NCBI GenBank assembly: GCA_020637445.1
Contig: JACJVZ010000003.1
Span: forward strand, 210,150-274,149
Direction: 5' to 3'
DNA: 64,000 bases
Source: Calditrichota bacterium
Lineage (GTDB): Bacteria > Electryoneota > RPQS01
The notes beneath the pieces are model-generated. The model was given only the letters and a program-made list of their open reading frames with translations, did no database searches and had not been told where the DNA came from. Below, in pieces: positions 3,677 through 50,135 of the stretch. Positions within the stretch are counted from its first letter, which is position 1, and each line of letters starts with the position of its first letter. Position numbers and translations under genes: made by a program.

Positions 3677-5656
3677 TTACTTCAACAAAACAAGTTTCTG
3701 AGTTTCGACGAATGATCCGGCGGAAACTCGCAGGAGATAGACTCCGGTTGCGAAAGCCGCTCTATCTACCAGCAAGCTATGCACACCGGCATCGAAAACA
3801 TCATCAGCCAACGTTGCCGCTTCGCGGCCTTCGATGGTATAGAGTTTCGCCGACACATGTGAAGTTTGGGGTAAATCGAAAGCAACGCGCGTGACGGCGT
3901 TGAAAGGATTGGGATAGGCCGGATACAACACGAAGGATTCGGCAAGATCTGGACGATCCGGCGAATCCAACGCCAAAATATAGACTCCGACTTCATCTGC
4001 TGTGTCGGGGCAGGCATTGTGGTGAATGATGACCTCGCCGAAAAATTCGGATTCAGGGTGTTCGGGGTTGGTCAAGACGGACACGACGATCTCGCCCGAA
4101 GCTCCCGCCGCAATTTCGCCGGACTCGGGCGCGACATAGAGCCATCCATACGTGGGAGTGTGTTCAACGGTCTCGCAGGTAAACTGCAGAAGTCCGTCGC
4201 CGTCGTTTTGAACAGTTAACGTGTCACGCTCCCACCGTCCAAAAGTACCGATGATGTTGACGCTGGTCTTGTTGTTCTCGTATTGAGGAGTCCCGACGGT
4301 GAAATCAACGACGTTCTCCCCTCCCAAGACCAACTCGACCGATTGCGAATCCGGGGCAATGCACGGTCCCGTAATCAGTAAGGTCGCCTCGCTTTGATTT
4401 GTACCAAGCAAGTATGCACCTTGTTCGTCGGTGATCGTGAAATCTCCGGTTTCAACGACTTCGACTCGCACGCCGGACAACGGCTCATTTGTGCCTTGCG
4501 CCCGAACGATTCCGTTGACGATATAGCCGGGACCAAAGCGGTATAAGCGCGCGGCGTAGTCCGTAGACTGGAACGTCGTTCCGAAGATCAGTCCAGCACT
4601 GCCGCGGTTGTGCATGCCGCGCAGATCCACTCCGTCTGCCGAAAGCTCCGCCGAATGGTCGCTGTTACCGGACGAGTTTAACGTATATATCCGGCCTGTG
4701 AACGGCCCGACTTCGCTCGCAGTTGACCCGCACACAGTTGCGCCGCCGTCATCCGTAGGTCGAATACCGGAGATGCCAAAGAACTCGCCGTCTAACCCCG
4801 TCAAAGTCCAAACATAATTTCCGCTTGAGGTGAGCTTGTAAGCCCACGGCCAATAGATTCCGAAATCAAAGCCCTCATTCCCCGCGACATAGATATTTTC
4901 GTCGTCATCGAGTGCGATGGCTTGCGGCATGATGCGCATGATATCCGGAGAAGGATAGTCATTCATCCAAACAGTGCTTCCCGTAGGCGTGGTTCGTGCC
5001 ACAAATGCATCAAAAGTGAACGCATCCGTGGTCAACCAACCTGCGACCGCCAAGTCGCCATTGGCGAACTCTTGAACACAAGCTCCTTGACTTCCCCCCT
5101 GTCCTGAAACACTTGCAGTCCAGAGCGTGTCGCCGTTAGAGTCGAATTTGATTAGCAGATCGGATTGGGACCCGCTGTTGTCATACATACCCGTATACAA
5201 AACGAGTCCGTTGTCACGGGTCGCACAAATTCCCGCTTTGTTTTCGGGATAGGCGATGTCCAAGTCAAAAGAGATCTCGCCTTGAACGGCTCCGACATCG
5301 TTGATTCGGAGTACCGAGAGAGACGGCAAAGAGTCATTGTCAGACGTAACAACTCCAACTAACGCGATCTGGCCGTCTTCAAATTGCTCCATGCCAAGTA
5401 GGGTGCAGTAGTCACCCTGAAATGACACGGTTCCGTTCCAAACTTGGCTTCCAGTGGCATTCAGCCGCCACAGATCGATGCCCGCATCAGCATTGTGGGC
5501 GCTGGCCACCATTGTATGCCCGTTTTGCAGAATGATTGCGGACTGAACCCATTGAAAAGAGCTCAGGTCAATTTGTTGAGACCAAAGGGTGTCGAGTTCG
5601 GCGCGAGCCGGTTGCATGACAAAGAACAGCAGGACGATGAATCCAAATGACTTCAT
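3677..5656 (-). CDS. Secreted beta-propeller-repeat protein with T9SS C-terminal sorting domain (paralog 1 of 3)
   Basis: Start taken at internal Met (MKSFGFIVLLFFVMQPARA) preceded by AAAGGAG; ORF-track model 3677..5737 begins upstream of the signal peptide. C-terminus YPAYPNPFNAV...GVYLLRVSAGSFVETQKLVLLK is a Por/T9SS CTD. Confidence 0.8.
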   Translation of the reverse strand: MKSFGFIVLLFFVMQPARAELDTLWSQQIDLSSFQWVQSAIILQNGHTMVASAHNADAGIDLWRLNATGSQVWNGTVSFQGDYCTLLGMEQFEDGQIALVGVVTSDNDSLPSLSVLRINDVGAVQGEISFDLDIAYPENKAGICATRDNGLVLYTGMYDNSGSQSDLLIKFDSNGDTLWTASVSGQGGSQGACVQEFANGDLAVAGWLTTDAFTFDAFVARTTPTGSTVWMNDYPSPDIMRIMPQAIALDDDENIYVAGNEGFDFGIYWPWAYKLTSSGNYVWTLTGLDGEFFGISGIRPTDDGGATVCGSTASEVGPFTGRIYTLNSSGNSDHSAELSADGVDLRGMHNRGSAGLIFGTTFQSTDYAARLYRFGPGYIVNGIVRAQGTNEPLSGVRVEVVETGDFTITDEQGAYLLGTNQSEATLLITGPCIAPDSQSVELVLGGENVVDFTVGTPQYENNKTSVNIIGTFGRWERDTLTVQNDGDGLLQFTCETVEHTPTYGWLYVAPESGEIAAGASGEIVVSVLTNPEHPESEFFGEVIIHHNACPDTADEVGVYILALDSPDRPDLAESFVLYPAYPNPFNAVTRVAFDLPQTSHVSAKLYTIEGREAATLADDVFDAGVHSLLVDRAAFATGVYLLRVSAGSFVETQKLVLLK

Positions 5657-5737
5657 AAGGGCTCCTTTCGGGATGCAGCGCAATGACGAAAGACATTTGG
5701 TCCGGGCGGGACCCACTCCCGGGCCGGAAAAGAACAA

Positions 5738-7726
5738 TTAGCGAATATACAGCAATTTCTGGACGGCGAAGGTATTCGGCATCGCGGCCCGAACGAAATA
5801 CAGTCCGGTCGCTTCTCCGGACAAATCAATGTTTATATTGTGATTGCCAGCAGACATGCGACCGTCGACAAGAGTTTTTACCCATTTCCCTGCAATGTTA
5901 TACACCTCCAAGCGGGCGACAGTTTCATTGGGAATCGAGAGTGTAATTGAGGTGTTGCTATTGAAGGGATTTGGATAGGCCGGCGACAGTGAGAACTGGG
6001 CCGGGAGCTCGGAGTGATCGTTGACATCGAGCACACTGACCAGAATGGGTAAAACCATCACGGTGTCTGGACAGGCGTTGCTTCGGATGGTCAGTTGCCC
6101 GTAGAACTCAAAGTTTCCATCGTTGGTGGTGTCAGCATGAGCAGTTATGACGGCGGAAGTGCTTGCATTGGGCGCCAAAACTCCGTGATCAGGCGCAACC
6201 GTGAGCCACGCTCCCGGAGGAGAAATTCCTTCGACGCTGAGAGTGTAGTTCAGGCTACCCGAACCGGAATTGGAAAAAGAAACGTTCGCGGTGCCGTCGG
6301 TCTCGTTTTGCGAAATGATATTGACGCTCGATTGGAGATTCGCAACGTTGGGTTCGCCGACTTCAAAATTTATTTGGACCGACTCGTTCTCGACCACTTG
6401 GACTCCGAAGACGGTATCCGCTTCGATACAGGCACCGTTGACAACAAGGTTATAGGTTCCGGCTTCAATATCAAATTGATAGACTCCATCTACGTCCGTG
6501 AGCGCGTAACGCAGTCCTCCCGAATCCGAGACGCGGGCACCGGGTACGGGATCTCCGGTTTCGGCGCTGCGTACGATTCCGTGAATTCCTGCGGGCGGCG
6601 CTAAAGACAAAATGTAGGCACTGACAGCGTTGTCGTCGGCAACGATTGCACCGACTGCAACAGCTCCGCCGCTGGAGTAGCGAACGATATTGTTGAATCC
6701 GCCTTCTGCGCCGAGATTTCCATAGCGCCACACCCAGCGCGTGAGGTTTTCGTCATCCACCGCGCGCATGAACGGGCCGGTGTCCGTTGCACCGGGTCCG
6801 GACTTTCCGACGAATAACATGCCACCGAACCACGGAGTCGCACCGACAAAACGATCGGCGAAACCTGTTGAGCTAAAGGCGAGCGAATAAGGCGCTCCAT
6901 CTGTAGGATGCACTCCGACAAATCCCGAAGTGCCGTTGACATCGCTTCTGCCTACGATCCAAAGAGTTCCGACCGGGTCGGCAATGACATTAAAGCACGT
7001 TTCGTAGTTGGACGTGCCATAGGTTCGACCCGTACCGATTTGATTTCCGTCCAAATCGAATTCAAGCTCCCAGACGTCCGTGGAGCCCGCGCCGTAACTT
7101 CTGGTTTGAGCGGCGACGACCAGATTACCATCGGGTTTTTGAATGATATCGTTGCCGATATCGGTGTCATTTCCGCCCACCGTACGCGTCCAAACGGTAT
7201 CGCCGTTGGCTTCACACAAGAGTACCCAGACATCTGAATGTGTGGGGTCCGTTGTGCCGCCTCGGTATCCCGTCACGGCGAAGCGGCCGTCGGTAAGTTT
7301 GCAGAGATTCCAGCTTTTGGTCCGGCCTTCGCGAGCATACCCTCTTTGCCACAGGACTTCGCCGGTGGACGCCAGGAATGAGACGAGGCTCACCTCTCTT
7401 CCGTCTTGAATATCCCATCCGGCGGCAACCATCGTGTCGCCGGACAGAGCGATCAGACCGTTGAGCGATTCATTGTCCGTGGAGGCCAAGACGGTTTGCG
7501 CGTAGACCGAATCACCGGACGTGGTGTAGGCACAGATGAGATAGTCATAGTCGGGATCGGTAAAACCGATTTGGGCATAGCCGACTCCGACGATCAGGGT
7601 ATCGTGCACCACGGCGGCGTCGTACAGATAGCATCGATCATTGACCAGAAAAGAGCGCGACCACGTAGTATCGGGCTGCGCAAAGGAAAGACACGGCAGG
7701 AGCAACAGGAGCAGCAGCGCAGGCAT
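5738..7726 (-). CDS. Secreted beta-propeller-repeat protein with T9SS C-terminal sorting domain (paralog 2 of 3)
   Basis: 662 aa; signal peptide MPALLLLLLLPCLSFA; carboxypeptidase-regulatory-like middle domain (GIVRSAETGDPVPGARV); CTD AYPNPFNSNTSI...GLYFVRAAM...KLLYIR. Confidence 0.8.
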   Translation of the reverse strand: MPALLLLLLLPCLSFAQPDTTWSRSFLVNDRCYLYDAAVVHDTLIVGVGYAQIGFTDPDYDYLICAYTTSGDSVYAQTVLASTDNESLNGLIALSGDTMVAAGWDIQDGREVSLVSFLASTGEVLWQRGYAREGRTKSWNLCKLTDGRFAVTGYRGGTTDPTHSDVWVLLCEANGDTVWTRTVGGNDTDIGNDIIQKPDGNLVVAAQTRSYGAGSTDVWELEFDLDGNQIGTGRTYGTSNYETCFNVIADPVGTLWIVGRSDVNGTSGFVGVHPTDGAPYSLAFSSTGFADRFVGATPWFGGMLFVGKSGPGATDTGPFMRAVDDENLTRWVWRYGNLGAEGGFNNIVRYSSGGAVAVGAIVADDNAVSAYILSLAPPAGIHGIVRSAETGDPVPGARVSDSGGLRYALTDVDGVYQFDIEAGTYNLVVNGACIEADTVFGVQVVENESVQINFEVGEPNVANLQSSVNIISQNETDGTANVSFSNSGSGSLNYTLSVEGISPPGAWLTVAPDHGVLAPNASTSAVITAHADTTNDGNFEFYGQLTIRSNACPDTVMVLPILVSVLDVNDHSELPAQFSLSPAYPNPFNSNTSITLSIPNETVARLEVYNIAGKWVKTLVDGRMSAGNHNINIDLSGEATGLYFVRAAMPNTFAVQKLLYIR

Positions 7727-7777
7727 CGTTAAACCTCAGTTGCTAAGTTGAACATAAAAAAGCGGCGGTAAGAACAA

Positions 7778-9772
7778 TCAGCGAATGTACAGCAGTCTTT
7801 GGGTTTGACTGCGGGAGTGATCGGACAAGCGAACAAAATACAATCCGGACGCCAGTCCCTTTGCCTCCCACGACAGGGAATGTTCTCCGGCGGGGAGTTT
7901 CGAATGACTCAGCAGCACGGCGACCTCGCGTCCCGTGACGTCATAGACCCGCAGTGAGACGTCGGACTCGTGATCGAGACCGAACCGCAAGCGTGTGACG
8001 TTGTTGAAGGGATTGGGATAGGCGGGATAGAGCGCAAATTCGGACGGCAAGGCGGGAGCGTCGTCGGCATCGAGTACGACGGCCAGCACATCAAAAGTCA
8101 AGACCGTATCGGGACACGAATTAGTGTGCAGCTTGAGTTCGCCGAAGAAATCGTAGTTTCCGCTGTCGTTGGTGTCGGCCTCGAGAATGACTTGAGCGAC
8201 AAGCGTGCTTCCCGGTGCCAGTCGTCCAAAGGGAGGTTCGACACGAAGCCAGTCATCAGGCGGAATTTCGGTCAGGGGTTCGAAGGAATAGACCAGATCG
8301 CCGCTGCCGGAATTTGAAAATCTCAGGTCGGCGGCGCCCTGTCCATGATTGGGGCCGACGACGTTGATCGAGGAGTAGCTGACGGCGAGATTGGGGACGC
8401 CGGCAGTGATATCGGCTTGAGTATTCTGGTTGGCGAAGACCTCAATACCGTGAACAGTGTCGCCGGCGAAACACGGTCCGCCCGAGAACATCGTGTAAAC
8501 TCCGGGCGGCAGAGCGAGGGCAAACCGTCCGACCGTATCTGAAACGGCATATTGCGGCAGTTCAGCGGCCTGCACGCGCACTCCGGCAACAGGTTCGTTG
8601 GTGACACGATTATGAACGACGCCAGAGATACCCGACGGCGGACTAATCCGCCACATCAGCATGTTATCATGTCCGGAGGTGTTGGCTCTTCCGCAGGCGA
8701 CAAAACCACCGTCGGAGATACGAACCAAATCTTCGAAAGCCCGGCCCAATTCCGTGTCTGTCCAGGTCCAACTTGTGTCCCCGTTGGTCGTCGTCGCCAC
8801 AAGCCACAACCTGCCGGAATTTACACTGGCGCCGGTTTGTCCGGCGAACAGGGTTCCGCCTTCAAGATAGGGAGCGACACCGGTAAATTTCTCGCTGCCA
8901 CGTCCGTCGGTATAGGTTCGTTGCCAAAGTGTTTCTCCCGCGGAATTGAGACGCATGGTGAAAGCATCGCGCAGAGAACCGGAACGGGATTCCCCCGTGA
9001 CAACGACGTCCCCGCTAACGGAATCCACGGTCGCCGCGAAAACCTGCTCGTAGTCTGAATCACCGTATGTCCGTTCACTGATAAAATTGCCGTCGCTGTC
9101 CGTAATCACGATATAGAAATCAAAGTGACGACTGGTGTCGGGATCGCTGGTCGTGCCGACGAGCAGGAGGTTTCCATTGGGCACACGTACGATCTCGTTG
9201 GGCCAATCAGGATTTGATGTGCCAAATGTCCTTGAATAGAGCGAATCGCCATTCGAGTCACAGCGCATCAGGTAGAAATCGAGCGATCCTCCGGGGCCGG
9301 TTCGTCTACCAGCTACATAAAACCCGCCGTCCTGATTGGGCAACAGCGCGGCCGCTTGGTCGGAGCCAGACCAGAAAAACTCCCTTGACCAGACGAAATC
9401 ACCTTGCTGTGAATAGCATACGACCAGTGAGTTTAGGCTTGAATCATGGCCGCACGCCACCAGATTGCCATTTGTAAGCACATCAACGTCAAATAGTTGC
9501 TGAACTGAATTGGGAACTCCGAAAATGCGGGACCAAAGAGTGTCACCAAGCGGATCGTAGCGCACGATGATTGCATCGTCAGAGTTGCCTGCGAACACAG
9601 AGCCAACCGCTACGAACCCGCCGGTGCTAAGCTCAATACAGGAATTTAGTGAAGAGGCGGATCCAAGATCGTAGATACTGGTCCATAGGGTGTCCACCTG
9701 CGCGGAGGCACGAGTCGTCAGACCTGACAAAAGAAGCAGCGCAAGGGCGAGAGTGAATGGCTTGAAACTCAT
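7778..9772 (-). CDS. Secreted beta-propeller-repeat protein with T9SS C-terminal sorting domain (paralog 3 of 3)
   Basis: 664 aa; signal peptide; same domain order as the two downstream paralogs; CTD AYPNPFNNVTRL...GLYFVRLSD...RLLYIR. Confidence 0.8.
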   Translation of the reverse strand: MSFKPFTLALALLLLSGLTTRASAQVDTLWTSIYDLGSASSLNSCIELSTGGFVAVGSVFAGNSDDAIIVRYDPLGDTLWSRIFGVPNSVQQLFDVDVLTNGNLVACGHDSSLNSLVVCYSQQGDFVWSREFFWSGSDQAAALLPNQDGGFYVAGRRTGPGGSLDFYLMRCDSNGDSLYSRTFGTSNPDWPNEIVRVPNGNLLLVGTTSDPDTSRHFDFYIVITDSDGNFISERTYGDSDYEQVFAATVDSVSGDVVVTGESRSGSLRDAFTMRLNSAGETLWQRTYTDGRGSEKFTGVAPYLEGGTLFAGQTGASVNSGRLWLVATTTNGDTSWTWTDTELGRAFEDLVRISDGGFVACGRANTSGHDNMLMWRISPPSGISGVVHNRVTNEPVAGVRVQAAELPQYAVSDTVGRFALALPPGVYTMFSGGPCFAGDTVHGIEVFANQNTQADITAGVPNLAVSYSSINVVGPNHGQGAADLRFSNSGSGDLVYSFEPLTEIPPDDWLRVEPPFGRLAPGSTLVAQVILEADTNDSGNYDFFGELKLHTNSCPDTVLTFDVLAVVLDADDAPALPSEFALYPAYPNPFNNVTRLRFGLDHESDVSLRVYDVTGREVAVLLSHSKLPAGEHSLSWEAKGLASGLYFVRLSDHSRSQTQRLLYIR

Positions 9773-10008
9773 GGAAACTAAAGATATAACAATTGGTTAG
9801 CTGTGCTCGAAGGCAGTTCTTGTAAACTATTAATATACCATAGTCTCATGGCCTCTTCAAGTTCCTCTTGGAAGATTGAGCAATTAAGTGGTGGTTACGG
9901 TGCCCAGCCGAGAATTGTGTTTGCCGGACCTCGCTGGCTCTTGAGAGTTGTTTTCTTTTAGTTTATATTTACGTTTTAGGAAAAAAGTCAGAGTTTCGGG
10001 AGTTGACC

Positions 10009-10980
10009 ATGTATCGCATCGCTCTTAGTTTGATGATCCTTCTTTTCCCAATGCTCACCGCATCGGGATACACGGTGTCCGGCAACATATCCGGTCGCGA
10101 AGGTGCGGCACTCACGTATGTTTATACGATTCCGACGAGTCTGGACACGTTCTACATCGCGATCGCGAATTTCCTGAATGGCAATTACTCACAGGGTAAT
10201 CTGGACGAGGGAAGTTACATCATATTCTCATTTCAGGATGCGAATTTCAGCTTTTTGCCCGATCCGGACGAATCGCGGGGATTTTACGGCGGAGAAGTAC
10301 CACAGACGTTGGACGTGTCGTCCGATTTGACAGGCATCGATATAGAACTGATGCCGCCGAACACAGGAGGATTTTCCGGTACGACGACGTACGAAGGCAG
10401 TGAAACGGGACCGACGTATGTTTTTGCACACCGGACGAACACGTTTGACGGCCTGCCAAGCGGAGCGGGAATTTTGCTCAACAATTCGGGAAGTGGAGAC
10501 TACACGGCGATAGTGGACAGCTTTGGAGTTTACTACGCGTTCGCGTTCATGGATGTGAATTCGAACTTTCAGTACGACGTGGGTGAACCCTACGACGTAT
10601 ACGGCGACGATCTTGAACCTGAGCCGATTACGATTACTCAGGGACAATCGTTTCCGGACAACATAAATTTCACTCTCGTAGCGACGTCTTCCGCAGCCGC
10701 GCCGACCGTGGCCGTTTCCGATTTCGAGCTTGGCCAAGCCTATCCCAATCCGTTCAATCCAGTCGCGACGATTCCTTTCACATTGGAAAGAACGTTGAGT
10801 GTTGAGATCGTGGCTTGCGACATCCTTGGACGAACGGTGCGAACACTGCACTCGGGGGTTTTACCCGCCGGCGAACACAGCGTTACCTTTGACGGCAACG
10901 GATTGGCGAGCGGACTCTACATTATCGAATTGCGCACACAAAACCACTCATCATGCACTCCCGCCGTGCTGTTGAAATAG
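10009..10980 (+). CDS. Secreted protein with T9SS C-terminal sorting domain
   Basis: Start at first ATG (MYRIALSLMILLFPMLTASG) with GGGAG upstream; the ORF-track start 10003 is TTG. CTD AYPNPFNPVATIPF...GLYIIEL. Confidence 0.7.
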   Translation: MYRIALSLMILLFPMLTASGYTVSGNISGREGAALTYVYTIPTSLDTFYIAIANFLNGNYSQGNLDEGSYIIFSFQDANFSFLPDPDESRGFYGGEVPQTLDVSSDLTGIDIELMPPNTGGFSGTTTYEGSETGPTYVFAHRTNTFDGLPSGAGILLNNSGSGDYTAIVDSFGVYYAFAFMDVNSNFQYDVGEPYDVYGDDLEPEPITITQGQSFPDNINFTLVATSSAAAPTVAVSDFELGQAYPNPFNPVATIPFTLERTLSVEIVACDILGRTVRTLHSGVLPAGEHSVTFDGNGLASGLYIIELRTQNHSSCTPAVLLK

Positions 10981-13900
10981 TTTGGCTCATAGGGCTCCTG
11001 ATTTTAGCCGCCGGACTGCGCGTTCCGACGGCACGCGGGGAAGCTCTCTTTGTTCGGGGAGAAGTCACGGGAATTTGGAGTGCGCCGATAGACACGGTGG
11101 TGATTGACAGCTTCGCGTGGGTTCCCGCTGCGGAGACATTGCAGATAGCGCCCGGAATGGTTGTGGCCTTTTCCGGGCGTTTTTCATTGTTGGTCAACGG
11201 AACTCTGTTAGCCAACGGCGAAGGCGATGATTCCATTTTCGTACAGAGCATTCCGTACCACGATTCCAACGGTCATCTTGGAATCAGGTTCTACGAAACC
11301 ACCACGATCTCGCGGCTGAACAAGGTCAAGTTCGAGGACGGGTTCGCGAACTCGGGTAACTTTGAACGCTACGGCGGAGCGCTTGAACTCTATTTCTCGG
11401 AAGTTGAAATAGACTCTTGTTTATTTCAAGGCAATCGCGCGCGCATCGACGGCGGAGCAATTTATTGCCGCGAAGCGGGGACGCTGACGGTGCGAGCCTC
11501 GGAGTTTGAAGGCGACAGCACACGGTTTGGCGGAGGCGGCGCAATTTTGGCGCGGACGAGCGGTTACGTGCGGCTGACGCGCTGTAGATTCACGAACAAC
11601 TCGGCGGCGGTAAGCGGCGGCGCGGTCACTTCGGAGAGCGGCGTCGTGGTTGAACTTGATAGCTGCTATTTTGCGAATAACTTTGCCGTCAACAAAGCCG
11701 GCGGGCTCTACCTCTGGTCGACTCCTCCGGCAAGCTGGATTCGCAATTGCGTGATTGAAGAGTGCGTGGCCGATCAGGGCGGCGGAATCTTTACGGACAA
11801 CTGCCGGGCGACGATCGACGGATGCACGATTCGGAATTGCTTTGCCCGCTTGGGCGGCGGATTAGGCGCGCGACGGTCGAATAATCTTACGACCCTTTCG
11901 CACACGACGATTACGGGAAACGCCGCCAATGAAGACGGCGGCGGACTCTACATTACGGAGGCCGCGCGCTGCACGGTCGAGAATTGTTTGATTGCGAACA
12001 ACACGGCCACACGCGGCGGGGGAATCTTCACAGTCGCGTCCACTTCGCCGACGATTCGCTTCACGACATTTGCAGGAAATATTGCGCAAGGCGGATCGGC
12101 TCTGGATTTCTACGGCGGCGGCGAAATTTACAATTCAATTGTCACAGGTGAAACCGGAGACGCTCTGGTCAATTACGGCGCCACCGCTTCACCGACGGTT
12201 TCCTATACGAACATCTTCTCAAACTCGGTGCCTGAGTTGTCGGGAGTTCATCCTGAGTGGCTGCTGGAAAACACGAGAATGAATGTCGCGCTGGTGGAAT
12301 GTGACTCGCTGAGAAACATCTCATTCGATCCACAATTTGTAAATTCCGACAGCGGTGATTTCAATCTTTCGGACATAAGTCCGTGCTTGTTCGGTGCAGA
12401 TACAAGCTATTCGAGCGGTGCTGATCTCGCTGGAAATCCACGGGTGTCTCCGCAGGGAAGTTGGCCGGATATGGGGGCATATGAGAACGATGCGCCGCTG
12501 CCGTATTTTCAGAATTGCGGACCGCAGCGCGGAGTTTGGTTTCCGGGCGAGTACGTTGTCGGCTGTTCTTTGAGAGTTGAAACCTCTGATACTCTTGTTC
12601 TGATGGGCGGCGCGACACTCTTGTTCGCTCCCGGAGCCGGACTATATGTTGAGGGAACGCTGCTGGCGATGGGCACCGCGCACGATTCGATCGTCTTTGA
12701 CCGCTATTTTGACTTGCCGGACGCGACGTGGAACGGGATTTCGCTGGCATCCTCGACCACAAATTCACGACTGAATTATTGTTCCGTGCGGCACGTCGTA
12801 GGAGCGTCGGCACTGACGACCAGCGAACCAGCCACACAACTCAACCATTGCACGTTTTCATTGAACGAGCACGTCGGCGGTGGCGGAGGAGCCGCAAGCG
12901 CGCTGCAAAACTCGTCACCTGTTTTTACAAGGTGCACATTTAAGCAGAACCGCGCAACCACGGGCGGAGCAGTTAGTGCCCTGACAGGACACATCGACTT
13001 TCGCGGATGCTTGTTTGACCACAACGAGGCGGTAAACTTCGGTGCTCCATTCACTGCACTTGGCGGCGCGGTGAAATGCGAAAACGGGAGCTTCTCGGAG
13101 TGCTTGTTTGTTTCCAACACGGCCTACGAGGGCGGCGGCGTCGCATTGGATCATACGGGGATTTTTACAGACTGCGAATTCGACTCATGCGCGGCATGGA
13201 AAGGCGGCGGCCTGTCGCTCGGCGGGGGAACGGCGGAGCTTTACCGGGTTGAGTTTCGCGGCAATCAAGGAAAGGATTTCGGCGGAGCTGTGTGCATGGG
13301 CGAGGCGGTACTTTCGGACAGCGGCAGCTTTTACATAGGCAATCGCGGTGCAAACGGCGGAGCGATCGCGAATCTTCATGGCGGGTACTCGGGAACAGAC
13401 ACTGAGTATAGTGACAACTCGGCCGACAATGAAGGGGGAGTGATTTGGCTGGGAAATGACCGAGCGGCATTGTTTTTTACGTGCACACTCCACCGCAACC
13501 ACGCGAAGACCGGTGGAGCAGTTTGGGGAGACGCGGCAGGCATCGACTTTTTCCGCTGCTTATTGGACAGCAATTATGCGACGGAAGCGACGGGCGGAAT
13601 TTACTTGCTCGGCGGAGGCGTGTCCTTCTTGCGTTCGACGGTCGTAAATCACCATTCGCCCGGGCAAGGCACGGTCGTGCAAAACCGTTTCAATTCGGTG
13701 TTGTGGTGCAACTCGACTCTGTTTGCCGAAAACGGCGACAGCCCCATTTCCGTTCACAGCGGAGTGCAGAACGACTTCCGGTATTCGATGAGTGACGTGC
13801 TCATCGTAGCCGGCGACGATTCGATCGGATTTCCGAGCAGGGTGAATTTTAACGGCGATTCGTGCGACGCGGATTTGAATCTTGTGGCTGAACCGTTGTT

Positions 13901-14624
13901 TGTCGATTATGCGGCTCGCGACTACCGGTTGCAGAGCGAATCCAAAGCGGTGCAGGCGGCAGATTCGCTGCTTCCGCTCGACGACGACGGAACGCGCGCG
14001 GATATTGGGCTCTATCCGGGTATTCGTCCGTACCTGCTTTTGCAGCCTTTCAATCTTGCGTGGCCTGAACGGAACGCATACTTTCATCCGGGCGATACGG
14101 TGGCGTTTGCATGGAATTCATCGTGGGACGGCGATCCGGGAGACGAAATAGACTATTCACTACATTTGCACAGCGAGTCGTTTGACACGGCTATTACAAC
14201 GGGCAGCGAACTTGGCCATACGGTAATACTGCATAACGGGCAATATGAATGGTGGGTCGTGGCCGCGTCGCATCAACCGGAAACGGAACTGGAAAGTTTT
14301 GAGCGCCGGACGTTTGTCGTCACCGATCCTGACCTTGGCCTTGATGATGTTTTGTGGCCCCGGGAGTTTTCAGTTTCGATGGACGGACCGAATCCGTTTA
14401 ACAGCGCAACGCGACTGCGGATTACTCTTCCCCACTCCACTGAAGTGACGGTAACATTGGTTAACGTTTTGGGCAGAACGTCATTCGCGATTCGTGAACG
14501 TGAATTTGTAGCTGGGGTCCATAGCATTTCAATTGATGGGACTCGGCTCGGTTCGGGTGTGTATTGGGCGCATGTTAAAACGAGTTTAGGAACGAAAACT
14601 CTTCAATTACACTTGATCAAATAG
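10953..14624 (+). CDS. Pmp-like parallel beta-helix repeat protein with T9SS C-terminal sorting domain
   Basis: 1223 aa; signal peptide; ~18 GGA[IVL]/GGG[IVL] and F-x-x-N motifs (DGGAIYC, FQGN, FTNN, FANN...) as in polymorphic-outer-membrane-protein repeats; CTD NPFNSATRL...GVYWAHVK. Start overlaps upstream gene by 28 nt, so start is uncertain. Confidence 0.8.
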   Translation: MHSRRAVEIVWLIGLLILAAGLRVPTARGEALFVRGEVTGIWSAPIDTVVIDSFAWVPAAETLQIAPGMVVAFSGRFSLLVNGTLLANGEGDDSIFVQSIPYHDSNGHLGIRFYETTTISRLNKVKFEDGFANSGNFERYGGALELYFSEVEIDSCLFQGNRARIDGGAIYCREAGTLTVRASEFEGDSTRFGGGGAILARTSGYVRLTRCRFTNNSAAVSGGAVTSESGVVVELDSCYFANNFAVNKAGGLYLWSTPPASWIRNCVIEECVADQGGGIFTDNCRATIDGCTIRNCFARLGGGLGARRSNNLTTLSHTTITGNAANEDGGGLYITEAARCTVENCLIANNTATRGGGIFTVASTSPTIRFTTFAGNIAQGGSALDFYGGGEIYNSIVTGETGDALVNYGATASPTVSYTNIFSNSVPELSGVHPEWLLENTRMNVALVECDSLRNISFDPQFVNSDSGDFNLSDISPCLFGADTSYSSGADLAGNPRVSPQGSWPDMGAYENDAPLPYFQNCGPQRGVWFPGEYVVGCSLRVETSDTLVLMGGATLLFAPGAGLYVEGTLLAMGTAHDSIVFDRYFDLPDATWNGISLASSTTNSRLNYCSVRHVVGASALTTSEPATQLNHCTFSLNEHVGGGGGAASALQNSSPVFTRCTFKQNRATTGGAVSALTGHIDFRGCLFDHNEAVNFGAPFTALGGAVKCENGSFSECLFVSNTAYEGGGVALDHTGIFTDCEFDSCAAWKGGGLSLGGGTAELYRVEFRGNQGKDFGGAVCMGEAVLSDSGSFYIGNRGANGGAIANLHGGYSGTDTEYSDNSADNEGGVIWLGNDRAALFFTCTLHRNHAKTGGAVWGDAAGIDFFRCLLDSNYATEATGGIYLLGGGVSFLRSTVVNHHSPGQGTVVQNRFNSVLWCNSTLFAENGDSPISVHSGVQNDFRYSMSDVLIVAGDDSIGFPSRVNFNGDSCDADLNLVAEPLFVDYAARDYRLQSESKAVQAADSLLPLDDDGTRADIGLYPGIRPYLLLQPFNLAWPERNAYFHPGDTVAFAWNSSWDGDPGDEIDYSLHLHSESFDTAITTGSELGHTVILHNGQYEWWVVAASHQPETELESFERRTFVVTDPDLGLDDVLWPREFSVSMDGPNPFNSATRLRITLPHSTEVTVTLVNVLGRTSFAIREREFVAGVHSISIDGTRLGSGVYWAHVKTSLGTKTLQLHLIK

Positions 14625-14652
14625 TTTATCAACCAGTATAGATATCGATGCG

Positions 14653-14687
14653 GGAGGTCGGCTGCGATGCCGACCTCTCTTTTTTTC
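14653..14687 (+). terminator. Intrinsic terminator after the Pmp-like gene
   Basis: Stem ggaggtcggc / gccgacctc with loop tgcgat, followed by tctttttttc. Confidence 0.75.
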
Positions 14688-14877
14688 ACAATGTACGCAA
14701 AGTCGGCTTTTCAAGCAGATTTTGCGGGTGAATGCTGATGCAAATCATTGAATATAGTGTTCTTTGAAATTCGACAAACTTAATCAAGGTTTTTTGATAA
14801 TTGCTCTGATTCTCTTGCACTTGCGCGAACCAGAAGGTAATTTGTAGGTGACACTAACAGTAAAAGGGGATTATGTC

Positions 14878-17800
14878 ATGAGAGCAAGGATTTTGCTGTT
14901 GAGCCTTGCGGCACTGATGATGATCGGAGAGCGGGGAGTGCTCGCTGATTCAGCACAAGTATCTGAAGTCCGTGGCCAAAGATTGCGGACGGAACTGCAA
15001 AAGACGAACGATTCGGCAAAACAGAGAGCGATCAGAAAAGAGATTTCGCAGCGTGCGCAGACTCGGGAGCGGAGAGACTCGCGCGAACGGTTGGATCAGG
15101 GAGGAGAAACATGCTCTTTGCCGACGGACTTGACAGGAATGCCGATTCCGATTGTCGTGTCCGGAACCACCATCGACTTCGCGGACGACTACAATTGTGC
15201 AGGATTCGGTCCCGCGCCTCCGCCCTGCTGGACAGGCTACTACGATCAGCTGACTTCGTGTTCCGGGCCGGACGTGGTCTACAGGTTTACACCGCCGGCA
15301 GACGGGGATTACCGTTTTTCGTTGTGCAATTCGGATTACGACACGGGAATCCTGATCTTTAACGATAACTGTCCGCCGAATTTTCCGACGGACTTCGTCT
15401 GCGGAAACGACGACTATTGCAATGTTCAGACTGAGATCGTATCGCTTTCTCTGACCTCCTCGCAACCGATATTGGTTATTATCGACGGCTGGAATGGTGA
15501 TGCGGGAAACTACGAGTTGGTGATTGATTTTGCGGAGCCGCCGCCGCCCAACGACGATTGTTTCGGTGCACAGTTCATCGAGGCGCCGTCTTTGGTGTCA
15601 GGATCGACGGCCAATGCAACGTATGACGATGCGCCGTTCGTCTGCGGAGGGTCGGTCATCGACGGTCCGGGAGTTTGGTATACGACTCTGGGAACTGGAA
15701 ATACGATGACCGTGAATACGTGCTTGCTGGACGGCTATGACACTCAGATCGCCGTTTACCAAGGAGGTTGTACGGGTTTGACGTGTGTTGACGGCAATGA
15801 TCAATTCTGCCTGAATCAGAGTCAAGTGACGTGGTGCAGTCAAGCGGGAGAGCAGTATTTCATTCTCGTGCACGGTTATCAGGGACAGGCCGGAGATTTT
15901 GTGTTGGAACTCACGGACGACGGCATCCCGTGCGGAGGAACGACGCCTGTACTATCCATCCTTGAAGTTTACGAGAACTTGCCGGACTTGGTAGGTCAAC
16001 AGGTGACCATCCGGGGCTTTGGTTCCGGCCCGAATCAGGGGATTATCACGGAAACTGAAGGTGATTGGCTGCGCAACACGGAGCTTGAGCCGTATTCGGC
16101 GCTCAAAGTAGTCGGACTTGATCCTTGGAATATTTACATTCCTGAGTTGATGTGGGGGCAGTACATCGAAGTGCAAGGTATCATTGGCGCGATTCCGATC
16201 TCGCCGGACGTGCCGCCGGGATATGAGGCCACGATTGAAGTCAACGCGCCTGCGGTCGTGGTCCCGAGCACGCCGCATGTGCCGGTAACTCAGGGAAATT
16301 GGCGGCCAGCCAATTGGACTCCAGACACGACGAATTGTGATACGTGCAATTTCGGGATGTTCATCTCGGGCGGAATCGACAGTGCAAACAACCGGGACGA
16401 CTACTGGGATGATTTGGTTGATTTCTACTGTTACAAAACCGGCGCCGGGTATTGTCCGCAGAATATCAACATCTACTATTTCAAAGGCGACACGCTGGAC
16501 GGTAGAATACCTCCTGCGCGAGTGGACTCTTGCACACAGGCAAAGATTCAGGCCAGAATCAATGCGATTGCCAGCAAGGTCAAGGCTTGCAAAGATGCTG
16601 GCAAAACACCCAAGGTTGAGATTGTCGTGACGAATCACGGAAAACATCCTCCCAACGGTGGAATCAATATTCTGGGCCGCGACGGGGCCGGCAGTTCAAA
16701 CGCGATATCGCCGCATGATTTCACATCCATGATCCAGACTTTGTGCGATTCTGGAGCTGCAAATATCGAGATTGAGTTAGGCGAGTGCTTCAGCGGACAG
16801 ATGGTCAATCATCTTCGCGACAGTTTGGACACTAAAGGCGCAAATGTCACGGCAGCTTCGGCGGCGCCGGATTCACTTTCGAGTTGGAGCAAAGGCAAGA
16901 AGGGCGGCTGGAACCGTTGGCTGAATCCGTTGGTTTGCGCGAGATACTCGGGAGAAAGCCTTCCCGAAGCGATTCGTAGAGCGAATCAAAGCTACGACTC
17001 TTCTCTTGTGCAGCTTGATTCGTTGTTCCGGGCATGGGCAGCTTATCTCGATTCACTTGGTACACACGGAGACTCGGTGAAGGCCGCCAAGTACCGCCGG
17101 TGGGCCAGCGACGCCATCAACGGCAAGGGCGGAGAAACCGTTTGGTTCAGCAGAACGTTCAAAGAATCGTGCAACGGAGACACGATATCGGTTTCGCCGG
17201 GCGGCAGACTTGAATTCACGTATTCCGGTCCGAACTCGAGCTGCGGCAACAGCGAGATTATTTGCAAAAACACGGCCGGCCATTGGATCAATTACCGCCA
17301 TTGGAATTGGAACGTACCGGGCTCCGCGGGTTACCACACTGGCAACAATGTCCGCACGTTGGATGCCGGTGCGGGACACACAGGACTCTACGTCATTCAC
17401 AGTTTGAGTGATTCATTCAGGGTTTCTATCAAATCCATCAATCCACCGCTTCCTCCAAGTCTTTTGACCTCTGCTTCGAATCCTGAAGACTATGCGGGCT
17501 TCGGTGTGGGCTGGACATCGGGAAATTCGGATGAATTCGGGGCAATCAATACGGCCACACTGACACTCCCGGACGTGGACGACGACGGATTTGATCTGTC
17601 GACGGCTCCGAAACTGCTCGGCCCGGGCGGAGTGGGACAATTGTTCGCGGACTTTGACGTGTTGGCGGAGAACTATTGGTGGACGGACATGCGGGTTTAT
17701 ATGCGCGTGCTCGGAGGAACGGCCGGTGTGACGGTGACAGCGGACTGTCCCGATTGCGAATTCTCCAATGTTTCGTACGATCTCGCGGGCGGAGACGAGA

Positions 17801-18144
17801 AATTTTATTTGAACCTCGGTTCGATCAACGTGGTGGGTTCACATACGTTGTCGCTCACGGCGACCGGAACAACGGAATTGGATTGTTGGGGACTTGAATC
17901 GGCACACTCGACGGGAACACCGCTGCCTGTGACGGATCTTGTGATCATTCGTGACGGCGACAACATCAACCTTCACTGGAGCGCGGTGCCGCTTGCCGTC
18001 AGTTATTTGGTACAGAGAGCTGCATCCGAGAATGGGCCGTGGGCAACCATTGGATTGGCTTTCGGAACGACTTTCGTGCATACGGGACAAGCGGCGTCCT
18101 CAGACGAGCAGCTTTACTACCAAGTGATCGCGGTTAGTCCGTAG
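14878..18144 (+). CDS. Large secreted multidomain protein: two PPC-like jelly-roll domains, clan-CD (legumain/gingipain-like) cysteine peptidase candidate, C-terminal Fn3-like domain
   Basis: Start at ATG (MRARILLLSLAALMMIG) with AAAGGGG upstream; putative His-Cys dyad in strand-associated motifs IVVTNHGKHP and IEIELGECFSGQM; no T9SS CTD. Confidence 0.75.
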   Translation: MRARILLLSLAALMMIGERGVLADSAQVSEVRGQRLRTELQKTNDSAKQRAIRKEISQRAQTRERRDSRERLDQGGETCSLPTDLTGMPIPIVVSGTTIDFADDYNCAGFGPAPPPCWTGYYDQLTSCSGPDVVYRFTPPADGDYRFSLCNSDYDTGILIFNDNCPPNFPTDFVCGNDDYCNVQTEIVSLSLTSSQPILVIIDGWNGDAGNYELVIDFAEPPPPNDDCFGAQFIEAPSLVSGSTANATYDDAPFVCGGSVIDGPGVWYTTLGTGNTMTVNTCLLDGYDTQIAVYQGGCTGLTCVDGNDQFCLNQSQVTWCSQAGEQYFILVHGYQGQAGDFVLELTDDGIPCGGTTPVLSILEVYENLPDLVGQQVTIRGFGSGPNQGIITETEGDWLRNTELEPYSALKVVGLDPWNIYIPELMWGQYIEVQGIIGAIPISPDVPPGYEATIEVNAPAVVVPSTPHVPVTQGNWRPANWTPDTTNCDTCNFGMFISGGIDSANNRDDYWDDLVDFYCYKTGAGYCPQNINIYYFKGDTLDGRIPPARVDSCTQAKIQARINAIASKVKACKDAGKTPKVEIVVTNHGKHPPNGGINILGRDGAGSSNAISPHDFTSMIQTLCDSGAANIEIELGECFSGQMVNHLRDSLDTKGANVTAASAAPDSLSSWSKGKKGGWNRWLNPLVCARYSGESLPEAIRRANQSYDSSLVQLDSLFRAWAAYLDSLGTHGDSVKAAKYRRWASDAINGKGGETVWFSRTFKESCNGDTISVSPGGRLEFTYSGPNSSCGNSEIICKNTAGHWINYRHWNWNVPGSAGYHTGNNVRTLDAGAGHTGLYVIHSLSDSFRVSIKSINPPLPPSLLTSASNPEDYAGFGVGWTSGNSDEFGAINTATLTLPDVDDDGFDLSTAPKLLGPGGVGQLFADFDVLAENYWWTDMRVYMRVLGGTAGVTVTADCPDCEFSNVSYDLAGGDEKFYLNLGSINVVGSHTLSLTATGTTELDCWGLESAHSTGTPLPVTDLVIIRDGDNINLHWSAVPLAVSYLVQRAASENGPWATIGLAFGTTFVHTGQAASSDEQLYYQVIAVSP

Positions 18145-34606: not shown

Positions 34607-34933
34607 ATGTAATATCTTCGAGTATCAGAGTCAATCACATTTTCGAATTTTTAATATTTTGATATTTAATAGTTTGTGGCAATAGTCTTGTAAGCCCGCG
34701 AGTCTTTAGGCTTTCGGGTACACCTCTTTGTTTGTGATCCAAAGGGATCGTGCTGCAGTATCTACAGATTATTTTCGCATTCCTAATAAGAGGCAACGAG
34801 AGCGTGTGTGGAAACCGTGGATAAGAAAATGACTTATTGCAGTTTCAATCGTTGAATTGAATCGATAGAAATCTTGACCAAATGCGTTTTGGAGGCTATC
34901 TTATTATCCTATAACTTTGTGAAAGGCTCAAGT

Positions 34934-37900
34934 ATGGCTGCTTTGACTCGGTTTGACTGCCTTTCTTATTGCTCCAAAATTGGAGCGATTGGATCTATTT
35001 TCATTATTGTTTTGATGCTTGGTGTCTTGCCATCCCTTGCATTTGGTGCAGACGGCCAGCAATCCGAGCAGCTTTCACCTTTGCATGAGGACTATGTTCC
35101 TCCCTCCCCCGCCGAGGACGTGCGCATAGAAATAATCGGCGATGCGCGGACGTTCGCCGTCAACAATCCCTTCAGTCGTGATTTCTTACGCAGATCGGGG
35201 TTGATGGCAAAAGGAAGCACGTGCGGTCAAGGCAACAACTGCGCACTGCGCCCGAGTGAAGATGTCGTGTTGTCCGTGTTTATTCCGACCAGTAGAAACT
35301 GGTCGTTTTCGCTCTGCGGCTCGTCGTTTGACACGTACATGGCAATCGGCACGACTCCTTGTTCCGCCAATTTGGGATTCAACGATGATTTTTGCGGCCG
35401 GCAGTCCCAGTCAGAGTGTATCTATCTGGACGTCGGCGTAGTCTATGTGACCATTGAGTCGGGATCCGGCGGATGCGGCACATACAAATTGATAGTCGAT
35501 ACGTGTTCGGCGGGCCGCTGCTGCTACATGGATTCAAATAACGAGCCGGCATGCACAAACTCGGGATATACCGAGTGTGCCGCAGTAAGCGGCGAATGGG
35601 ATGCGTCGACGAGGTGCGAAACGGATCCTTGTCCCTTGGGCCGTTGCTGCTACGAGATCGACGGAGTGCCGAATTGCATGGACGGGCTGTTGGAAAAAGA
35701 GTGTTTGTTCAACCTTCAAGGCACATGGACGGAAGGCGTCACGTGCAGCCAGGAGATATGTCCTGAGATGGTGGACACCCTTACTTGCGGTCCGCTGGAC
35801 TTGGTGCTGGCCATTGATGTTTCGGGTTCAATGATAGAGGAACTTTCTACTGTTCAATCGGAAGCCCAAGAAATTTTGACTCGTGCTGTTGAAGTGTCCC
35901 GCGAAGATCTGCGAGTAGGTCTGGTAACTTTTCGCGAATTCGTCAGCGTACCTTCATCCCTGACGAACGATATCGGATCTGTGTCTTCCGCCATTGGCCA
36001 GCTTTTCGCTTATTGGGGCGGCGATCCCGGAGAAGCGTCTGACGAAGCCCTGCGCGAGATTATCACGATGGACGGTTCTTGCACACATGGTCCGGGATTC
36101 GACACGCCTTTCAGAGCGGGCGCGGACAAAGTGATCATCATCATGACGGACGAGATCAATAGCGGGTGCTCGGGAATATTCAGGCCGCAGTATGCTCATC
36201 AACGCGCATTGGACGCTCAAGCCGCGGATATCAGGATTTCCTCTATCTATATTCGAGGAGAATTGAACGAACGGAATATATCCGATGTATTGCGAGACTA
36301 CGCCGAGACGACGGGCGGCCTCTATGTGGTATCGCGCGCAGGAGAAAACATCTCTGAAAATATCGAGTACATTTTGGATCGCTGCGGTCGGTCGACGCTT
36401 GCTTTGGCCGGTGATTCGATACCCAATGTGCCGTGCGTAAACTCCACCGACTTTCCAAACCAAGTAGAGTTGAAGATCAGAGTAAGGAATGTAACAAACG
36501 AACCGATCGGTGGAGGCACGGTTCATTTGTTTTCTGACGCAGGTCCCGGAGGAACAGGTCTTGTAATCTCTCCAAATCCCGTGTCACTGGGGTACGTACT
36601 TCCTCACGACACCGTCGAAGTAGGATTCACGGTAGTCCTCGCGGCCAATCCTTCCGGGGGATGCATCAATTTTCGCGCTGTACTGACTCAAGACACTATT
36701 GAACTCGGAACGGATTCGATATGCATAAACGTTCCAAATGGGGGACTTGAATTTGGGAATCACTGGTTTCCCGCGGTACACTGCGACGGATACGGGGTTG
36801 CACCCACCAGTTTCACGGCCACGTTTGATGTGGTCAACAACTCGCTTTGCGAAGTGGATGACGCCCAAGTATCATTGGAAATTTTGAGCGGAAGCGGCGG
36901 TCAAGGCACGGTAGTTTCAGCAAATCCCGTGCAGTTGGGACACGTTCCTTACGGCCGGACCGTTACCGTACCATTTGACGTACAGATTCAACCGTTGCCT
37001 CCGGGAGGGTGTATCTACTTTCGAGCCATGCTGCACTTCGGTGATGAACCATACCAAGTGCAAGAGTCGTGTTTGAATATCCCTTCCTATGAGCTTACGC
37101 TGCTGGCAATTTCTGACTATGCCGTCAGCTGTGTAGATGGCGAAATAGTGCCTTTGTCTATGAATTTGGTTGTCGCGGCACGGAACTCATCCTCATGTCC
37201 TGCACACGGAGTACAGATATGGATGGGACCCGGCAATGGGTCCGCAGGTACCGGAACGGTCGTGACGCAGAATCCGGTTGTGATCGGCACCATGAATCTC
37301 CTCTCCACACGAGGTGCGAACTTTGGTGTTGAAATCAATCCGAATTCCACAGGCGGAATCATTTCTTTCCCCGTGAAATTGATTGTGGGTACAGACACGG
37401 TTGCCACGAGCAATGCAAACATCATTGTTCCACCTTGCGGCTGCGAGTCGACAACTGCCGTTGTGATGTCATCCAAGAGCGAGAGCTTGGGATGCACTTG
37501 TGTGCAAATGTGTGATACCGCACCAATTCCCATCACAATCTGCGGGGACGGCTACGAAACGCCAAGCCCGCCAGTTATCAGTTTTCAAGACTGTTTCGGT
37601 GACTGCGTGCAGGGCGAAGCTGCGGTTCCGGAATCACTGTGGATACACGAGAATGATTGCTGGACAAACTTCATCCATGTGGTCGTGACCGGATGCACCC
37701 AAGTATGCGCAGAGTTCCCCAGACATCTCGCCGCGGCGGATTTCAAGTTGATACGAGACTTCGACCGGATTTATGTTCGCTGGAACATGGTCTCAGAGAA
37801 GAACTTGAAACTGCTCGAAGTAGAACGCAACGGCCAAATGGTTGCTGTTGTCGACGCGACGAACGAAGTCGGTTCCGAGTACGAGTGGACGGACAGCAAC

Positions 37901-50114: not shown

Positions 50115-50135
50115 ACAAACTCAGGAGGATTTCTC

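Follow-up and report, generated by a model that had tools for sequence, protein, structure and literature searches.

Closest described systems

The closest described counterparts of the protein analyzed here are the beta-helix cargo proteins of Bacteroidota that carry a type-A C-terminal sorting domain (CTD) of a type IX secretion system (T9SS). For Prevotella intermedia, PMC11969387 describes T9SS cargo with one to three pectin-lyase-fold domains as 'common', and such proteins (also GenBank entries named 'choice-of-anchor Q domain-containing protein', for instance P0053 and P0073) share with ours a signal peptide, one to three right-handed beta-helix domains (PF02415/PF13229), a cap that resembles the choice-of-anchor Q domain and, at the C-terminus, a CTD of the TIGR04183/PF18962 type. 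Our protein differs from them in its host phylum, Calditrichota, in an identity of only about 25–31%, and in the fixed two-module layout and conserved overlapping partner gene of the Calditrichota clade. The adhesin-like proteins of Methanobrevibacter and Methanosphaera (PMC11532034), which are present among the homologs found (P0092; L004, L005), likewise contain repeated beta-helix modules with PF02415 matches, after which come Ig-like domains and an anchor at the C-terminus, but they are archaeal, and the anchor is a transmembrane or pseudomurein one instead of a CTD.

The polymorphic membrane proteins of Chlamydia (PmpA-I, PmpD; type Va), which are surface-exposed adhesins (PMC11166332), have GGA[ILV] and FxxN motifs at the same spacing, which form the coils of a long parallel beta-helix. 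PMP_M and the C-terminal beta-barrel are, however, lacking in our protein, so that its secretion route differs, and it has two shorter helices where a Pmp has a single helix with at least 27 coils. The passengers of Bordetella Vag8 and pertactin and of E. coli Ag43/TibA/EtpA are type V secreted, are 7–12% identical and do not have the GGA/FxxN signature. Two-domain PL6 alginate lyases (8bwk, 7o7t, 7dmk) contain the same tandem pair of right-handed beta-helix domains in one chain, but they are enzymes whose catalytic Lys/Arg and Ca2+ sites are defined, and identity to them is 8–12%.

Two beta-helix modules, an Ig-like domain and a sorting domain

The gene occupies positions 10953..14624 (+) of the window, by which we mean the whole 64,000-nucleotide stretch of Calditrichota DNA that was analyzed; it starts with ATG and ends with a stop codon at 14622–14624, and the open reading frame of 1223 aa reproduces exactly the coordinates given by the first-pass annotation. 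The product is a large protein, probably secreted and located at the cell surface, with two rod-shaped beta-helix modules and a T9SS sorting domain, encoded by a real and ordinary Calditrichota gene. In GenBank, it bears the generic name 'right-handed parallel beta-helix repeat-containing protein.' As a whole, it is probably a double beta-helix protein that is exported through Sec and T9SS to the surface or the medium, with adhesion or ligand binding as its most likely role.

The first-pass annotation had counted roughly 18 GGA[IVL]/GGG[IVL] motifs. This count is fair and far beyond chance, because nine GGA[IVL] and seven GGG[IVL] motifs (16 in the strict sense) and 19 motifs of the relaxed form GG[AG][IVLAMF] were found, against means of 0.3, 0.4, and 1.3 (maximum 6), respectively, in shuffled versions of the same protein. 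The FxxN motifs (13, against 3.8 ± 1.9 expected) alternate regularly with the GG[AG]h motifs, as had been claimed, in two blocks (aa 141–375 and aa 635–890) with the register GG[AG]h-x13-[FLI]xxN-x4-6, which gives about 10 and 11 coils of 23–33 residues each, mostly 25–28. The Pfam models Beta_helix (PF13229; 4e-27), Chlam_PMP (43.4 bits, cutoff 20.6; aa 155–172) and NosD (32.7 bits) and the NCBIfam model POMP_repeat (30.8 bits, cutoff 15) matched, so that the Pmp-type and beta-helix models are found above threshold. The structure model is a continuous right-handed parallel beta-helix with three strands per turn, the fold that had been anticipated, which together with the PF13229 match places the protein in the pectin-lyase-like superfamily. 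A sequence search of the PDB with the whole protein gave one weak match only, at the level of the repeats (7w5z, E 0.012).

The protein is an internal duplication, in which module 2 duplicates module 1. DNA-level tandem repeats were not found within the gene; the repeats are ancient and can be seen only in the protein sequence. Module 1 (11040..12152, +) consists of an N-terminal start or cap region (aa 30–139) and beta-helix 1 (aa 140–400, about 10 Pmp-type coils), for which the AlphaFold pLDDT is mostly 85–96. It is followed by a C-terminal cap and inter-module linker (aa 401–530; 12153..12542, +), whose motif DPQFV..GDF.L...SPC...AD....D..G..R......DMGAYE resembles the choice-of-anchor Q domain; this region is highly conserved in sequence and poorly modeled (pLDDT <50 in parts). 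Module 2 (12543..14027, +) comprises a start or cap region (aa 531–612), beta-helix 2 with its roughly 11 coils (aa 613–940) and then a second cap (aa 941–1025) with the motif EPLFVD...RDYRL......AAD....D.DGT.ADIG. The model choice_anch_Q (NF041518) scores 15.5 bits (E 0.016) on the protein, under its cutoff of 25, with the motif visible twice in the sequence, and it matched five of 12 family members at E<=0.01 (best E 1.5e-7).

The caps are followed by an Ig/FN3-like beta-sandwich (aa about 1030–1125; 14040..14327, +) with the conserved motif W-N-x-S-x-D-x-D-P-G-D, modeled as six strands (pLDDT about 70–80); it had no Pfam match even at E<=10, and in the structural comparison pairs of FN3 domains in tandem could be aligned with it and the CTD together. 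The chain ends in a T9SS type-A CTD (aa 1146–1223; 14388..14621, +) with the elements PNPFN, LGR, G.H, SGVY and a terminal K, modeled as a seven-strand sandwich (pLDDT about 80–88). On public models, this CTD (matched at aa 1146–1218) is marginal, scoring 20.3 bits against a cutoff of 27 with Pfam Por_Secre_tail (PF18962) and 23.5 bits against one of 23 with TIGR04183. A leave-one-out HMM made from the six other CTDs in the window gives it 59 bits (E 2e-17), it aligns almost gap-free with these six with 10 invariant columns, and TIGR04183 matched eight of 12 family members (best E 1e-7). Models, alignment and local HMM thus agree with the earlier reading of the C-terminus as a T9SS sorting domain and not a beta-barrel.

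Start codon and signal peptide

As reported earlier, the gene upstream, whose stop is at 10980, overlaps this one by 28 nt, but the start that had been called uncertain on this account is not so. Judged by hydropathy and inspection, ATG 10953 yields a classic signal peptide (aa 1–29; 10953..11039, +; MHSRRAVE / IVWLIGLLILAAGL / RVPTARG, then EA) with n-, h- and c-regions and an A-x-G cleavage motif. Kyte-Doolittle hydropathy averages 2.93 in its hydrophobic core; from aa 49, the next start in frame, the value is 1.76. The signal peptide is conserved in the orthologs, which were taken from the protein database and in which position −1 is a small residue and position −3 is A or V. The ATG at the position of 10953 is invariant in four lineages, and the overlap of 28 nt is likewise kept in four of the five compared, although the lineages sharing it are only 47–54% identical at the protein level. 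Because both the signal peptide and the overlap are conserved in this way, ATG 10953 is the true start. The alternative GTG 11097 (aa 49), chosen by gene callers in the L011 locus, was rejected, because the conserved signal peptide would be lost. In one lineage (L011/L012), the big gene is without a canonical start codon (ATG, GTG or TTG) and the signal peptide is retained, which may make initiation there dependent on coupling to the gene upstream.

Ligand binding or enzymatic activity

The mature protein would be made of two rigid rods in tandem, right-handed parallel beta-helices of Pmp-type 25–28-residue coils (GG[AG]h...C.FxxN). Each rod would have a start region of its own and a cap at its C-terminal end, and the Ig-like domain would act as a spacer after both. 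Adhesion or binding of a glycan or protein ligand is the most likely function of the modules, because the coils are uniformly short and without long loops, and no glycosidase or lyase signature motif (GH28, PL1, PL6, AlgE) was recognized by eye. Sequence conservation among the orthologs is densest in module 1, in which the residues E145, Y171, R173, R201, E228, R162, D166, D188, and R191 form an invariant charged ladder in the first coils, a candidate binding site.

This dense cluster of invariant Asp, Glu, Arg and Tyr residues could equally be an active site, and it is conceivable, albeit unlikely, that the architecture and export are as described here and the modules are polysaccharide-acting enzymes, such as lyases, hydrolases or epimerases. 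Many of the best structural neighbors in the PDB are polysaccharide lyases or depolymerases, which weighs against an adhesin, and the top whole-chain Foldseek match is with the PL6 alginate lyases (E 3e-5), with a poor superposition (TM 0.19–0.28). However, identity to the structurally similar enzymes is only 7–12%, no PL or GH family was found at E<=0.1 in Pfam or NCBIfam, and the autotransporter passenger Vag8 is as good a structural match as the enzymes. The short uniform coils do not have the long loops that form substrate clefts, and the same inspection by eye for GH28, PL1, PL6 and AlgE motifs speaks against catalysis. Adhesion or ligand binding is therefore preferred.

The upstream partner and the gene neighborhood

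The overlapping upstream gene (10003..10980, +; probably from ATG 10009) encodes a protein of 325 aa. Its signal peptide is followed by about 230 aa that match no family and by a type-A CTD of the T9SS kind (Por_Secre_tail 31.8 bits, TIGR04183 25.1 bits). Its N-terminal 242 aa had no Pfam match even at E<=10, which was also true of the downstream 1098-aa protein. Every related locus has the 325-aa gene at the corresponding place, and its product is 63% identical to the counterpart in the L006 locus. A possible origin as a paralog of the neighboring 664-aa CTD protein was rejected on comparison. In the genome-contig scan for the beta-helix gene, only distant relatives were found (Neomarinimicrobiota, Bacteroidales, Desulfatibacillaceae, Methanobrevibacter), and no orthologs.

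The two genes form a two-gene unit within a conserved cluster of genes for CTD proteins, and the beta-helix gene is probably co-transcribed with, and translationally coupled to, the 325-aa gene. A sigma-70-like promoter candidate lies upstream of the unit (9941..9969, +; TTGAGA-17-TATATT, 10 of 12 consensus positions), being a consensus match in a region where the number of such sites is not over the shuffle expectation. A hairpin resembling an intrinsic terminator begins 28 nt past the stop (14652..14689, +; 11-bp stem with eight GC pairs, loop of 6, then T7); it is by far the strongest of the region, in which the number of terminator-like sites is not over the shuffle expectation either. That the 325-aa and double-beta-helix proteins make up a Calditrichota-specific two-component surface structure, with the ladder as docking or active site and T9SS-like export in a phylum without described machinery, is a speculation that we regard as improbable.

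Probable export route

Export would start with a cleavable N-terminal signal peptide that directs the protein through Sec to the periplasm, where the type-A CTD may be recognized by the T9SS and the folded cargo moved across the outer membrane; by analogy with Bacteroidota cargo, removal of the CTD would then leave the protein linked to a glycolipid at the surface or set it free. The sequence has the two features of type-A cargo, a Sec signal peptide at the N-terminus and a CTD at the extreme C-terminus.

The C-terminal domain might instead be a structural Ig-like or FlgD-like sandwich, or the signal of an uncharacterized Calditrichota sorting system; the protein would then be no cargo of the T9SS. 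This is quite unlikely, although several observations are in its favor: the larger open reading frames of the 64-kb window include no T9SS machinery genes recognizable with Pfam or NCBIfam, related CTDs of the window also match FlgD_ig, the Caldithrix abyssi genome paper reports that a Bacteroidetes-type gliding machinery was not found (PMC5317091), and we found no paper tying T9SS to Calditrichota or Caldithrix, PMC7323717 and PMC9727166 being silent on the topic. However, the gene set for gliding is not that of the T9SS core, and according to reviews the distribution of TIGR04183, which is restricted to FCB bacteria, tracks T9SS (PMC12398890). Moreover, seven window proteins of unrelated function (VWA, 5′-nucleotidase, CarboxypepD_reg/BACON, and others) share the domain at their extreme C-termini, as sorting signals do, and five of the seven pass the Pfam gathering score for Por_Secre_tail. 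T9SS-dependent export is therefore the favored route.

Relationship to chlamydial Pmps

The designation as chlamydial-Pmp-like holds for the repeats, which are real: multiple GGA[ILV] and FxxN tetrapeptides (PF02415/TIGR01376) alternate regularly with a spacing that matches that of Pmps (PMC11166332). It does not hold for the protein, which is no chlamydial Pmp, because neither PMP_M (PF07548) nor the autotransporter beta-barrel (PF03797) was matched at E<=0.1 in the Pfam scan of the 1223 aa. The accompanying statement that these repeats are normally associated with autotransporters is true only for Chlamydia, which accounts for less than a third of PF02415 proteins (PMC11166332). The repeats have 75,851 relatives at E<=0.001, spanning bacteria, archaea and eukaryotes; an autotransporter barrel domain is listed for none of the best 120 of these, and of the same 120, 13 carry a CTD by one count and 18 a Por_Secre_tail domain. 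Kinship with a true Pmp autotransporter whose barrel was recently swapped for a CTD is effectively refuted and hardly conceivable, since the identical tetrapeptides and spacing, a weak match of one family member to the AIDA-I/YfaL passenger model (E 3e-4) and the structural proximity of the Vag8, pertactin and Ag43 passengers are set against the lack of PMP_M and barrel, the mostly non-chlamydial range of the relatives (PMC11166332) and the fact that, among the best 120, no named or annotated homolog is chlamydial.

Implications

The combination of beta-helix and CTD is routine and common in this bacterial group, and not a surprising exchange of pathways, given the abundance of repeat relatives, the CTD-bearing homologs and the beta-helix T9SS cargo in the literature. 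The details that are new here are the internal duplication, the Ig-like domain, the true start and the two-gene unit with the 325-aa protein in a conserved CTD-protein cluster. The generic GenBank name can thus be replaced by that of a double Pmp-type beta-helix protein with a signal peptide, which is probably a type-A cargo of the T9SS and whose start codon and partner gene are defined; beyond annotation, the protein is of little importance. It is one more case in which the Pmp-type coil serves as a generic building block that is paired with many different anchors. With seven CTD proteins in 64 kb, Calditrichota lean heavily on the CTD sorting signal, which makes it worthwhile to look explicitly for the machinery of the T9SS in the phylum.

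Repeat architecture of the beta-helix protein

As the first-pass annotation had it, the open reading frame at 10953-14624 (+ strand, ATG start) encodes 1223 aa, and its roughly 18 GGA/GGG motifs were recounted as nine GGA[IVL] and seven GGG[IVL], or 19 with a relaxed fourth residue, against means of 0.3, 0.4 and 1.3, respectively, in shuffles of the same protein; FxxN occurs 13 times (3.8 +/- 1.9 expected). The motifs are grouped rather than scattered, forming two blocks (aa 141-375 and aa 635-890) of about 10 and 11 coils, each of 23-33 residues (mostly 25-28), in the strict register GG[AG]h-x13-[F/L/I]xxN-x4-6, with a Cys usually two residues ahead of the F. This spacing is the same as in chlamydial Pmps, in which 14-18 residues separate GGA from FxxN and 4-5 separate FxxN from GGA (PMC11166332). 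No tandem repeats are present at the DNA level in the gene. Both Pmp-repeat models, Chlam_PMP (Pfam, 43.4 bits; cutoff 20.6) and POMP_repeat (NCBIfam, 30.8 bits; cutoff 15), score above cutoff, and Pfam also returned Beta_helix (E 4e-27) and NosD (32.7 bits).

The protein has an anatomy absent from that annotation. Residues about 30-530 are duplicated at about 531-1025 (28% identity, E 1e-7), and the duplication takes in the start region of each module, G.W..P...V......V....TL.I.PG..V.F.....L.V.GTLLA.G...DSI.F. Each of the two modules is closed by a cap motif, [DE]P.FV......D[FY].L followed by an Asp run and D[MI]G.Y, similar to the choice-of-anchor Q domain; the corresponding model gives 15.5 bits on this protein (cutoff 25) and matches five family members (best E 1.5e-7), and the caps are poorly modelled (pLDDT below 50). 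[quoted passage not shown] Conservation among eight orthologs is uneven, with maxima at aa 30-230 and aa 430-580 and a low level in the helix core of module 2. The first coils of module 1 carry an invariant ladder in which E145 and Y171 occupy register position 5 and R173, R201 and E228 occupy position 7, joined by the invariant turn residues R162, D166, D188 and R191. Judging from the register, this ladder would face outward, and it is a candidate functional patch.

Sorting domain

Matches of the tail to the public CTD models are marginal (Por_Secre_tail, 20.3 bits, below the cutoff of 27; TIGR04183, 23.5 bits against a cutoff of 23), and the tail was therefore aligned with the C-termini of the six other proteins in the window that match CTD models. 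The alignment is near-gapless, all sharing PNPFN, G[RK], G.H and G.Y and ending in K or R, and an HMM built from those six CTDs alone scores 59 bits (E 2e-17) on the tail. TIGR04183 matches eight of 12 family members (best E 1e-7). On this sequence evidence, the protein ends in a genuine CTD of type A, and the Pfam scan found no match to PMP_M or an autotransporter barrel at E<=0.1, so that the earlier proposal of a T9SS CTD in place of a barrel holds. The 64-kb window encodes seven CTD proteins in total, two of them at 34874-38275 (+, 1133 aa, VWA) and 51598-54384 (+, 928 aa, 5'-nucleotidase domain); no T9SS machinery genes were found within it.

Translation start and signal peptide

The start, previously considered uncertain, is settled at ATG 10953 by the predicted signal peptide, the conserved N-terminus, the invariant ATG and the conserved overlap with the upstream gene. 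From this ATG the + strand encodes MHSRRAVE-IVWLIGLLILAAGL-RVPTARG, with predicted cleavage before EA; the n-region is positively charged, the 12-residue hydrophobic core has a Kyte-Doolittle mean of 2.93, and A-x-G precedes the cleavage site. The next in-frame start, at aa 49, lacks signal-peptide features (mean 1.76) and was rejected. Orthologs of 46-54% identity have the same N-terminus. The ATG is invariant in three further lineages (L006, L007/L008 and L009), in which the stop of the upstream gene is equally distant and the 28-nt overlap is therefore conserved; the gene caller chose a later start in L009.

At 65% identity, P0002 (two contigs, each sample contributing to the pair of samples) is the closest lineage, and it has GTC at the homologous codon. 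Across the signal-peptide region of its contigs (L011:7806-8003 and L012:1462-1659, orthologous to 10953-11100) there is no ATG, GTG or TTG, ATT and ATC being the only candidates; the frame is still open and encodes the conserved signal peptide, which the gene caller's start at aa 49 would remove. In that lineage, this suggests either non-canonical initiation or initiation coupled to the upstream gene that overlaps.

Gene neighborhood

Gene order is common to five lineages: a Redoxin/TPR protein and a 210-261-aa protein; three CTD proteins of ~665 aa on the minus strand, with CarboxypepD_reg and some with BACON; and, on the plus strand, a 323-325-aa CTD protein, the beta-helix protein, sometimes an SDF transporter, a 1075-1122-aa protein and an aldehyde dehydrogenase. 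In the window, the trio consists of tandem paralogs of ~665-686 aa (3677-9772, -) with a beta-propeller-like N-terminal region, CarboxypepD_reg, BACON_2 and the CTD; it is kept as three in all related loci and is divergent from the beta-helix gene pair.

The upstream overlapping partner (10003-10980, +, 325 aa) and the beta-helix gene appear to form a translationally coupled, bicistronic unit, because a promoter-like site (9941-9969) lies ahead of the former and a strong hairpin with T7 behind it (14652-14689) lies directly 3′ of the latter. The partner probably does not begin at TTG 10003, which the ORF finder listed; its alignment with the ortholog begins at ATG 10009. Its first ~240 aa have no family match, and it is better conserved than the beta-helix protein (63% versus 47% identity in the same compared genome).

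The downstream secreted protein (14848-18144, +, 1098 aa) is conserved in each of the five related loci. Neither Pfam nor NCBIfam matches it, its sole match being C-terminal and Fn3-like (PDB 3mpc, E 3.5e-5); by eye, VVTNHG ... ELGECFSG putatively resembles the surroundings of the His/Cys dyad in cysteine peptidases of clan CD. The rest of the window, which derives from a Calditrichota MAG, has ordinary chromosomal content (RecQ, SAICAR synthase, Lgt, thymidylate kinase, BipA, alanine racemase and others), and at 49026-51371 (+) it holds a 362-aa Beta_helix/NosD-like protein without a CTD and, after it, a 411-aa protein without a family match. GC skew is positive over nearly the whole window, cumulative skew climbs steadily between ~8 kb and 54 kb, and the + strand carries most of the genes there, consistent with a leading-strand segment of the chromosome.

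Export, function and distribution

In the best-supported reading, the protein would be exported by Sec, translocated by T9SS by way of its CTD and displayed on or released from the surface, the first and last of these steps being suggested by sequence features and by established knowledge of T9SS (PMC12398890); its two rigid beta-helix rods, kept off the membrane by the Ig-like spacer, may serve adhesion or ligand binding, because the coils are smooth and loop-poor and no enzyme-family match was found for the 1223-aa protein. The main rival is that the modules are enzymatic, in line with the many structural neighbors that are lyases or depolymerases and with the dense invariant charged cluster in module 1. 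A lesser one, that the CTD in Calditrichota directs sorting by a route distinct from canonical T9SS, draws on the genome paper of C. abyssi, in which no Bacteroidetes-type gliding machinery was found (PMC5317091), but the gene sets for gliding and for the T9SS core differ.

The observation of Pmp-type repeats with a T9SS tail is confirmed and its interpretation supported overall; the implied novelty is not, and the premise of a normal association with autotransporters is valid in Chlamydia alone. When 1.84 billion cluster representatives were scanned in full with HMMER, 75,851 relatives were returned at E<=0.001, of which 17,163 reach E<=1e-10. Among the best 120 homologs in an indexed search, 18 carry Por_Secre_tail, 13 of them with Chlam_PMP (two named 'choice-of-anchor Q domain-containing protein [Bacteroidota bacterium]'), and none is listed with an autotransporter barrel; others bear domains of the dockerin, SLH, PKD or kinase type, and algae, oomycetes or Methanobrevibacter are the source of several. 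A GenBank protein in the 90%-identity cluster of the beta-helix protein (MCB1060298.1 / MCB9369785.1) is named only 'right-handed parallel beta-helix repeat-containing protein'. Chlamydial proteins make up under a third of PF02415 (PMC11166332). TIGR04183 is found in the FCB superphylum, Calditrichaeota included (PMC5317091), and, similar to the beta-helix and CTD combination here, proteins with 1-3 pectin-lyase-fold domains occur commonly among the 80 proteins predicted as T9SS cargo in Prevotella intermedia (PMC11969387). Pmp-type coils are generic units for building beta-helices, joined to whichever anchor their host employs; that they occur together with a CTD in a bacterium of the FCB superphylum is to be expected rather than very unusual, and the beta-helix protein belongs to a known, very large kind.
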